From contig JAISDG010000140.1 of NCBI GenBank assembly GCA_031265015.1, positions 1 to 40,502 on the forward strand: a stretch of DNA of 40,502 nt. Reading direction: 5' to 3'. Below are positions 35,628 to 37,256 of this stretch, piece after piece. The stretch's first letter is position 1, and every line of letters begins with the position of its first letter. The notes under the pieces are model-generated. The model had not been told where the DNA came from. It searched no databases and saw nothing but the letters and a program-made list of their open reading frames with translations. A program made the translations under genes and the position numbers. The DNA is from Spirochaetaceae bacterium (GTDB taxonomy: Bacteria > Spirochaetota > Spirochaetia > Treponematales > Breznakiellaceae).

Positions 35628-35733
35628 CCTGTTTGAGATTTAATACTGTTTATGATAAAAAGTCAATAAAGCCGCTCCGGCCCGTATACCCGCGCGGGCC
35701 GATGTTCCGCGGGAGCGTGTTACAGGGTAAAAA

Positions 35734-36348
35734 AAGCGATGAACCATAAGCCGGATTCTGTTTTTAGCATGCCCCAGGGCCATGCTATAACCGCCATCTG
35801 TCTGGGACGGCCGTTGCCGGCCGTCTCCGTGCAGTCTACCCGTGCTTGACCGGCGGGCCGCCGGCTTACCTTGGGTGATTTCACCTTTTGGCATAAAAGC
35901 TTGTACCGTCAGGTACAAGCCGCGCACTTGCTTGACTTTGCTCCCGGCGAGGCTTGCCATAATCCGGCGCGACCGGATTATGGCAAGCGTTTGCTGCGCA
36001 AACCCTGCCCTGCCAGCCGAACCGAATTGTTTGCCGCCGGCGTTGCCGCCGGCGCGGTGGGCTCTTACCCCGCCATTTCACCCTGACTTTCCGCCTTCGG
36101 GTTCAAGTTTTGCCTTTAGGCACAACATTTTGCCTTCAGGTACAAACTTTCTACCTTCAGGTATAAAGCGGTATCCTTTCTGTTGCGCTTTCTGTCGGAA
36201 AGCTTTTTGTCCCCGTTACCGGGGGCTTGTTGCGCTTTCCGCCCGGGAATTACCCGGCGCCGTGCCCTGCGGAGTCCGGACTTTCCTCGAATTTTTAAGG
36301 ATGAGCATCGCGAATCCTTAAAAACCGCGGCGGCATGGTTCATCGCTT
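35734..36348 (-). ncRNA. rnpB: RNase P RNA, bacterial type A, unusually long (about 615 nt)
   Basis: The minus strand has the P4 5' strand GAGGAAAGUCCGGACUCCGCAGGGCA (about 36290-36265). The P4 3' strand is ACAGAAUCCGGCUUAU (35760-35745). P1 pairs 5' AAGCGAUGAACCAU (36348-36335) with 3' AUGGUUCAUCGCUU (35747-35734), followed by a U-run. Other universal blocks are present: GAAAGCGCAACAGAAAGG, CAGGGUGAAAUGGCGGGGUAAGAGCCCACCGCG, CCGGGAGCAAAG, CGGGUAGACUGC and AGAUGG. Confidence 0.9.
36092..36170 (-). repeat. Four tandem repeats of about 20 nt (mini-hairpin units) inside rnpB
   Basis: On the plus strand the units are cgCCTTCGGGttcaagttt, tgCCTTTAGGcacaacattt, tgCCTTCAGGtacaaactttc and taCCTTCAGGtataaagcg. 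In the RNA each reads NNCC-(U/C)(G/A)AA-GGNN followed by an A-rich linker. Confidence 0.8.
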
Positions 36349-36413: not shown

Positions 36414-37256
36414 TTACTCCTCGTATTCCATTCCCGGAGTTTCCTCGTCCTCCTCGTCTTCATCATATTCATCTTCTTCCATGTCATCAAGGTCCGCCAG
36501 GCTTCCGGTGTCTTCAGTGTCAAAGAAGTCTTCCCCGTCCTCGCCGGTCTCTTCATGGAACAGGATCCGGGAACAGTAGGGACAAAAAACGATTTCCTCT
36601 CCCTGATGGACAAGATTGGCAAACTGGACGGGAAGGACCATGTGACAGCCCATACATACCCCGCCCTTGATGGCGACAATACCCCGGCCCATTTTGTTCC
36701 TGATAATCCGCTCGAATTTAAAAAGCACCTCCGGGTCGAGGCCGGGGATCAGGTTCTGTTCTTCTTCTTCCAGCCTGGCGATCTGGGCCTTTTTTTCCGC
36801 AACTTCCATTTCGATGCCCTGCCGCCGCTCCGCCATCTCCTGTTCCTGTTGATCAATAAGGGCGGTCGTCTGCTTGATCTGTTCATCCAGATCCGCCAGC
36901 ATCCGTTCTTCCCGCTGAAGCTCCTTCCGGTACTGCTGTTCCCTGTCCGCCGCGTCCCGGATTTCCTTATCCAGAGCCTCGTATTCCCGCTGGGTATTGA
37001 CGGCGTCCATGTTTTTTTCCGATTTTTCCCTCATGGATACCGCTTCTTCCAGCAGTTCCCGGTATTCTACTTCGGAGCTGCGGAATTTTTCATATTCCAG
37101 GCTTTTTTCAATAAAGGTTTTTTTAAGCCTGGCAAGAAGCTCTTCCTGGGTTACCAGGATTTTGGGAATCTCTTCCACTTCATGTTCAAGTTTTATTTTT
37201 TCCGACAGGATATCCTGAAGTGTTCTAAGCTTGTCAAATACCTCTTCCATTACCAT
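36414..37256 (-). CDS. COG1579-type coiled-coil / C4 zinc-ribbon protein with an acidic tail
   Basis: 280 aa. A long heptad-rich N-terminal part, zinc ribbon CMGCHMVLP...FCPYCSRIL, and C-terminal DDMEEDEYDEDEEDEE. Confidence 0.8.
   Translation of the reverse strand: MVMEEVFDKLRTLQDILSEKIKLEHEVEEIPKILVTQEELLARLKKTFIEKSLEYEKFRSSEVEYRELLEEAVSMREKSEKNMDAVNTQREYEALDKEIRDAADREQQYRKELQREERMLADLDEQIKQTTALIDQQEQEMAERRQGIEMEVAEKKAQIARLEEEEQNLIPGLDPEVLFKFERIIRNKMGRGIVAIKGGVCMGCHMVLPVQFANLVHQGEEIVFCPYCSRILFHEETGEDGEDFFDTEDTGSLADLDDMEEDEYDEDEEDEETPGMEYEE

Follow-up and report, generated by a model that had tools for sequence, protein, structure and literature searches.

RNase P RNA serves as a model ribozyme, and the bacterial RNA is commonly regarded as compact, with ~330-450 nt. 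The type-A RNA and the protein RnpA together remove the 5' leaders of pre-tRNAs, and the GGU in the P15 loop of the RNA pairs with the 3' end of the tRNA. For cyanobacteria, Vioque is said to have described in 1997 rnpB genes with a P12 lengthened by STRR short tandem repeats, and the STRR heptamers are reportedly dispersed genome-wide in these organisms. RNase P RNAs have been given a length of 250-550 nt overall, and those of type A average 374 nt (PMC7191817). A P12 expansion segment of Thermodesulfatator indicus is excised in vivo, which results in a fragmented P RNA; P11 mispairing and folding traps are discussed in the same work (Goessringer et al. 2023, PMC9945441). Treponema denticola contains the multi-copy motifs TD-1 and TD-2, for which no function is known (Weinberg et al. 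2007, PMC1950547).

The window analyzed here, i.e. the whole stretch of DNA with a length of 40,502 nt, contains a 615-nt rnpB. We regard it as likely that this locus is the single, functional rnpB of a termite-gut Treponema, in which an ordinary core carries an expansion of 248 nt at six sites that would most likely be tolerated or stabilising decoration. The S-domain part of this ordinary core is not fully secure, because a long hairpin is predicted to sequester the 3' strand of P11. With the RF00010 type, represented by E. coli M1 RNA and Thermotoga maritima P RNA, the RNA shares the P1-P18 architecture, the P4 strands, J11/12, J12/13, the GNRA loops, the P15 GGU and an accompanying RnpA. 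It differs in the additional 248 nt at the six expanded sites, one of which holds a further element of several hairpins, placed in the P14-P11 junction and overlapping with the P11 3' strand. The T. indicus RNA is comparable in the large lineage-specific P12 expansion of a type-A RNA, but there a single segment is affected and excised in vivo, whereas the RNA described here is expanded at six sites and has a tandem array of mini-hairpins as P12 insert. Tandem repeat units within P12 are also the common feature with the cyanobacterial STRR genes; here the period is 20 (TRF) and, unlike the STRR heptamers, the 20-nt units have no other copy in the assembly (blastn-short). The RNase P RNAs of the CPR bacteria (Lui et al. 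2021, PMC8172020) are diverged but likewise derived from type A, and they need manual refolding because of their strongly extended helices. In contrast to the RNA described here, which appears to keep every canonical element, the CPR forms lose helices (P12-P14, P18, UGG motif).

Bacterial rnpB genes of excessive length have been known before, as have tandem repeats in P12 and the excision of P12 segments. The literature searched contained no paper on a multi-site, fast-evolving series of rnpB expansions in termite-gut treponemes and none on a TD-2-type module embedded in rnpB.

Identity and gene context of rnpB

An Rfam scan of the whole window revealed one match above threshold, to RF00010 (RNaseP_bact_a), with 216.1 bits and an E value of 6e-69 (Table 1). 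The gathering score of this model is 100 bits, and the match covers all of its 367 positions (1-367) from end to end. A previous reading made from the letters of the DNA only (the sequence-only reading) had proposed a minus-strand type-A rnpB of ~615 nt with P1 arms at 36348-36335 and 35747-35734, and the full-length match bears this out. The two arms form a perfect 14-bp complement, and the RF00010 match begins 2 nt further in. Using an anchor search, the anchor motifs of rnpB were found in order. The P4 strands start at RNA positions 59 and 586 and are therefore 527 nt apart, in agreement with the earlier estimate of ~530 nt. Both P4 strands, J5/15, J11/12, J12/13 and the GGU of the P15 loop were aligned to RF00010 at high posterior probability, so that the universal blocks are intact as had been claimed. 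The peripheral set typical of type A, whose GNRA loops serve loop-helix contacts, is also present: P13, P14 and P18, the latter two with GNRA loops, P16/17, and P9, whose lengthened helix is capped by a GNRA loop.

In its own assembly, a 69% complete MAG of 2.09 Mb in 233 contigs, rnpB is the only RF00010 match above the cut-off, and rnpA is present at G000:C205:912-1172. A second rnpB candidate at G000:C129:13501-13650 (L002; 25.8 bits) was judged to be probably spurious, with the whole model squeezed into 150 nt; it lies beside a TD-2-like array.

The neighboring genes named in the sequence-only reading, COG1579 and TPR, were both found. The COG1579-type gene encodes a Zn_ribbon_9 protein and the other flank of rnpB is occupied by the TPR protein gene. 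Of the 72 loci of relatives in which rnpB was located (L029-L108), 66 share the position of rnpB just 3' of the Zn_ribbon_9 gene and in the same orientation. The closest homologues of the Zn_ribbon_9 protein are encoded in termite-gut Treponema MAGs, with 96% identity in Treponema sp. Gx481_bin22; identity to the homologue from Breznakiella homolactica is 73%. The sole sigma-70-like site upstream of rnpB (36490-36462) is located within the 3' end of the Zn_ribbon_9 gene, and co-transcription of rnpB with this gene is therefore possible.

Table 1. Features of the rnpB locus and related elements of the same genome. Positions refer to the window unless a contig is named; the excess is the number of nucleotides over the 367-position RF00010 model.
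Feature	Position	Strand	Excess (nt)	Basis or remark
Zn_ribbon_9 (COG1579-type) protein gene, upstream of rnpB	36414..37256	-		
rnpB, type-A RNase P RNA, 615 nt	35732..36346	-		RF00010; P1 extendable by 2 bp, giving 35734-36348
P3, lengthened to ~13 bp, enlarged loop	36289..36328	-	+16 (P3 loop)	RF00010 alignment, fold z -2.9
P4 5' strand, conserved core block	36276..36288	-		RF00010 alignment and anchor search
P9, lengthened: 8-bp outer stem, internal loop, 5-bp GNRA-capped inner stem	36195..36241	-	+34	
P12 with tandem array of four mini-hairpin units, ~20 nt each	36091..36171	-	+62	RF00010 alignment
P14, ordinary 8-bp hairpin, GNRA loop	36035..36054	-		Read from sequence
Post-P14 insert, ~80 nt, TD-2-like, between P14 and P11 3' strand	35952..36032	-	+73 (put by RF00010 into "P14 loop")	Positional alignment with relatives and model R1
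Insert hairpin 1	35989-36003	-		
Insert hairpin 2, 16-17 bp helix	35952-35988	-		
P11/P10 3' strand according to RF00010	35950..35958	-		7 of 9 bases also within the 3' arm of hairpin 2
Two additional hairpins within P16, before P17	35867..35920	-	+52 (P16/17)	RF00010 alignment and folding
P19-like hairpin between P2 3' strand and P4 3' strand	35766..35786	-	+11 (before P4 3' strand)	Folding
P4 3' strand, conserved core block	35747..35761	-		RF00010 alignment and anchor search
TD-2-like loci of the own genome, outside the window	G000:C6:126-340; C129:13840-14012; C226:4874-4965; C196:7325-7412			
Further TD-2-like loci of the own genome	G000 C117:8610-8695; C180:21803-21887; C198:18121-18203; C77:2945-3025			

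Six expansion sites and their variation in the lineage

Alignment to RF00010 distributed the excess of 248 nt over six sites, which confirmed that the additional length is due to insertions. For each of the six expanded segments, the fold is more stable than those of dinucleotide-shuffled controls (z -2.2 to -6.5). The elements which the sequence-only reading had listed, a stem with a GNRA-capped inner hairpin, tandem units and a 16-bp helix at 35952-35988, are all present in the sequence, but they belong to other helices or sites. The stem CGGAAAGC...GCUUUCCG, considered to be an extra stem near P8/P9, is the lengthened P9 itself; its outer stem is aligned as P9, and the segment folds with -22.7 kcal/mol (z -3.8). 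The four-unit array had been placed at P9 and belongs to P12, and the 16-bp helix is not part of a P12-like arm but of the insert between P14 and the P11 3' strand. The expansions of the P3 loop, of P16/17 and of the P19-like hairpin had been missed.

For the P12 array, TRF reported a period of 20 with 2.7 copies and a score of 64 at 36108-36161. A reading of this array as one long rod was set aside because the sister species, which lacks unit 1, does not conserve the rod of the minimum free energy fold; the mini-hairpins gain compensatory changes. P14 covaries across the relatives, with double changes at 3 of 8 pairs in one alignment and at 5 of 8 pairs in another; the low-confidence placement of the P14 3' strand by RF00010 is an artefact. 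A multi-branch fold is predicted for the P15-17 region (z -3.75). A similar small hairpin with a stem ending in ACC, a 4-nt loop and GGU recurs in the units of the P12 array and at the tip of the first extra P16/17 hairpin, and rnpB contains the 8-mer class CCYRAMGG at ~30 times the density of the genome. With the whole RNA as query, blastn-short detected no other copy of any insert or of the 20-nt unit in the 69%-complete own assembly. Capture of ordinary genomic sequence as source of the inserts was accordingly rejected; a relation to TD-2 is visible to structure-aware models only.

The same rnpB architecture is present in an independent MAG of a sister species (G001 = L029), with a length of 597 nt and 90% identity. 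This is the only relative with alignable inserts; all others can be aligned in the core blocks only. The P12 array of the sister species consists of three units instead of four, due to a 21-nt indel which corresponds to unit 1. Comparison of both RNAs revealed a compensatory change from U-A to C-G and one gained pair in P12 unit 3, a compensatory change from G-C to A-U in P3 and two compensatory pair changes in the P19-like hairpin. The shared architecture together with these changes rules out an assembly artefact, and the compensatory changes indicate selection on the structure of the inserts.

Genes for rnpB are 400-618 nt long within the family and 346-638 nt within the order. The distance from P4 to P4, determined in 72 further loci, is distributed continuously from 279 to 528 nt (median 374), and ~5 of 93 distinct relatives have an rnpB that reaches 600 nt. 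After splitting of the RNAs at conserved anchors it became evident that the six sites vary independently between species. In a sample of 150 genomes from the phylum, nearly all rnpB genes are 320-450 nt long, with exceptions of 627, 549, 522 and 503 nt. The sequence-only reading had called the length unusual and had suggested an RF00010 search and a comparison with related genomes, in which a common length would make it lineage-typical. The first part stands, since 615 nt is extreme for bacteria and exceeds the literature range of 250-550 nt and the type-A mean; the second applies to a certain degree, since relatives within the lineage reach 618-638 nt. The continuous range of lengths thus places the 615 nt at the upper end of a lineage-wide trend and not in a singular position. 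Equally long rnpB genes with expansions at other sites are found in Spirochaetota outside the family, at G025:C10:187963-188600 (638 nt, with a P15-17 segment of 169 nt) and G090:C56:25595-26221 (627 nt).

The post-P14 insert, TD-2 and the pairing of P11

Many relatives have a small extra hairpin of ~21 nt at the post-P14 site, with double changes at 6 of 7 pairs and 98.5% of the alignment cells paired. Ten species including the one analyzed here have a large form, which consists of a 5' part, a middle hairpin (hairpin 1) and a long terminal hairpin (hairpin 2). Within these species hairpin 2 shows double changes at 6 of 13 pairs, and 97% of the cells are paired. The stem of hairpin 1 does not covary, and its sequence is kept across species and sites. 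The same two-hairpin module with the sequence-conserved first stem was also found in the P19 region of other species, and L075 and L091 contain it at both sites of rnpB. On a quick single-gene IQ-TREE tree with many open forks, from which we used only the coarse patchiness, the module is scattered over at least three separate regions of the family, and species that lack it are found in between. This patchy distribution points to repeated gain or repeated loss.

By reciprocal covariance-model searches, the insert looks like a relative of the dispersed TD-2 family (Rfam RF03162, gathering cut-off 48.7 bits). A search of the own genome with the hairpin 1 motif resulted in loci which are called TD-2-like by Rfam. 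RF03162 matched the rnpB inserts of relatives over the full model with 23-31 bits, which is below the cut-off (L091, L088, L075); in L091 the P19 insert scored 31.2 bits and the post-P14 insert 25.5 bits. The own rnpB gave no RF03162 match at E<=1 in the Rfam search. A second model, R1, was built from nine rnpB modules (subset A5) with exclusion of the own window and of the sister species; the MAFFT alignment of all 12 modules (A4) was structurally poor, so that the nine-sequence subset was preferred. R1 matched the own insert at 35956-36007 with 29.9 bits and an E value of 6.5e-7 for the 901 nt searched, or roughly 1e-3 when scaled genome-wide. Across 474 kb of rnpB loci, 19 of 19 R1 matches are located inside rnpB. 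In the genomes of five relatives the model found at least 14 loci outside rnpB, which coincide with independent TD-2 matches, and it also matched TD-2-like loci in the own genome. The order of hairpin 1, linker and hairpin 2 is clear in the inserts of the relatives; in the own insert hairpin 1 is degenerate (shortened and diverged) and the linker is reduced.

The rnpB module, as seen in the relatives, and TD-2 share the order of their hairpins: the first has the conserved stem G/A-G-U-U-U ... A-A-A-C-U-C and is joined by a short linker rich in A (AA) to a long variable one. Further common points are the reciprocal model matches between rnpB inserts and dispersed loci and the multi-copy occurrence in these genomes. 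They differ in that the T. denticola elements were described as free-standing and intergenic, whereas the module is embedded in a ribozyme here, and in that the scores are below the Rfam cut-off and the copy in the window is degenerate. TD-2-like elements are dispersed over nine places in the own genome and over 10-16 in four of five relatives. The own-genome TD-2 matches are all under the cut-off (the best with 47.6 vs 48.7 bits), and most of the eight loci that were compared with long ORFs are located between ORFs. Some of the own-genome elements are tandem, and they are multi-hairpin structures. The alternative which had been offered for the additional length, lineage-specific peripheral elements or captured sequence, fits these findings; for the post-P14 insert captured sequence is plausible.

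RF00010 aligns P10/P11, yet the 3' strand of this helix sits within the covarying hairpin of 16-17 bp. Using the nearest-neighbor model, folding of RNA positions 150-402 gave -104.9 kcal/mol without constraint, -104.7 kcal/mol with the long hairpin enforced, -98.5 kcal/mol with an alternative 5-bp P11 inside the insert in combination with the hairpin and P10, and -93.2 kcal/mol with canonical P10/P11 enforced. Enforcement of the canonical helix is therefore predicted to cost ~12 kcal/mol. In the relatives, the contact of the hairpin 2 base with the P11 3' strand is limited to the first three bases of this strand. Pairing of the hairpin base with the first bases of the strand is present in 10 of 10 species with a large insert, and L041 shows one double compensatory change there. 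Across the family the second pair of P11 covaries, as U-A with GUGCA and as C-G with GCGCA, and a C-A mismatch occurs at this pair in several large-insert species (L088, L091, L019).

Function, origin and alternative explanations

The RNA is expected to act together with RnpA and to cut the 5' leaders off pre-tRNAs like any type-A RNase P RNA. Its catalytic and substrate-binding core would be ordinary, and the 248 extra bases would represent expansion segments: five of them prolong peripheral helices at their ends or introduce a further peripheral hairpin (P3, P9, P12, P16/17 and the P19-like hairpin), and one is placed in the S-domain junction after P14. These segments seem to grow and shrink quickly in the lineage by at least two routes. 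One route may be local tandem duplication of small hairpin units, as suggested by the P12 array with four units here and three in the sister species. In the other, a modular hairpin element akin to the dispersed TD-2 motif may have been gained or duplicated; this element is found at the post-P14 site in the RNA described here and, in other species, at the same site, at a second site near P19, or at both.

Since the MAG is 69% complete and split into 233 contigs, one could suspect a chimeric assembly at this locus, or a pseudogene in decay, in an incomplete metagenome bin. This is hardly credible given the same architecture with compensatory substitutions in an independent MAG, the intact conserved core blocks, the order of Zn-ribbon gene and rnpB conserved in ~66 loci and a position internal to a contig that has 40 kb or more. 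For a genuine gene it is most likely that the expansions are kept in the RNA as tolerated or stabilising decoration; this retention is inferred. Alternatively, one or more of them could be intervening segments that are cut out by cellular RNases to leave a shorter, fragmented working ribozyme. The P12 segment of T. indicus is a direct precedent (PMC9945441). The long, near-perfect helices of the inserts (16-17 bp and 10 bp) and the A/U-rich linkers could be nuclease targets, and removal of hairpin 2 would free the P11 3' strand. RNase III usually needs roughly two helical turns, and the helices are below this size. The compensatory changes and the covariation, which show selection on the structure of the inserts, are compatible with excision but not needed for it, and on balance we consider excision unlikely.

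Conservation of the hairpin 1 stem in sequence instead of covariation suggests sequence-specific recognition, and the post-P14 module could in this case be a functional addition: a chaperone or switch for folding of the S-domain that acts via the P11 3' strand, or a docking site for a lineage-specific protein which also binds the dispersed TD-2 RNAs. The contact between hairpin 2 and the P11 3' strand in all ten species with the large form and the alternative 5-bp partner for the P11 5' strand inside the insert would be in line with such a role. However, the module is patchy on the tree and close relatives manage without it, which argues against an essential role; the conservation of hairpin 1 could reflect a recent common origin alone, and the partner protein is only hypothetical. 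Taken together, a functional addition appears improbable to us. Tentative and rather improbable is also the idea that TD-2-type elements are mobile or self-duplicating and have repeatedly colonised the P14-P11 junction and the P19 region. In this lineage the long hairpin would then have grown to pair with the whole P11 3' strand, and the S-domain would use the alternative P11 or switch between folds. If true, this would provide the first biological context for the orphan motif TD-2, and the core of an essential ribozyme would have been remodelled by a repeat element.

In this lineage RNase P RNA appears to behave like rRNA with its expansion segments. As the six sites vary independently between close species, the lengths of 346 to ~640 nt form a natural series in which the tolerance of the core can be examined, and one ribozyme with and without the module is a testable system. 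Annotation pipelines with a length limit as well as the Rfam alignment, which misplaced P14 in the present case, will mis-annotate such genes. TD-1 and TD-2 have been orphan motifs since 2007; that the module is embedded in an essential RNA, and there at two sites, speaks for a hairpin element of a mobile or modular kind and less for a regulatory RNA that stands alone.

Two minor observations concern the dispersed TD-2-like loci. Several of them lie directly 3' of a long ORF of the same orientation and precede a U-run, which is a terminator-like position. At L111:1456-1537 (G000:C226:4955-5036), a match to Flavo-1 RNA (RF01705), an RNA described from Bacteroidetes, was found in this spirochaete with 45.9 bits (gathering score 42) right after two TD-2-type hairpins.
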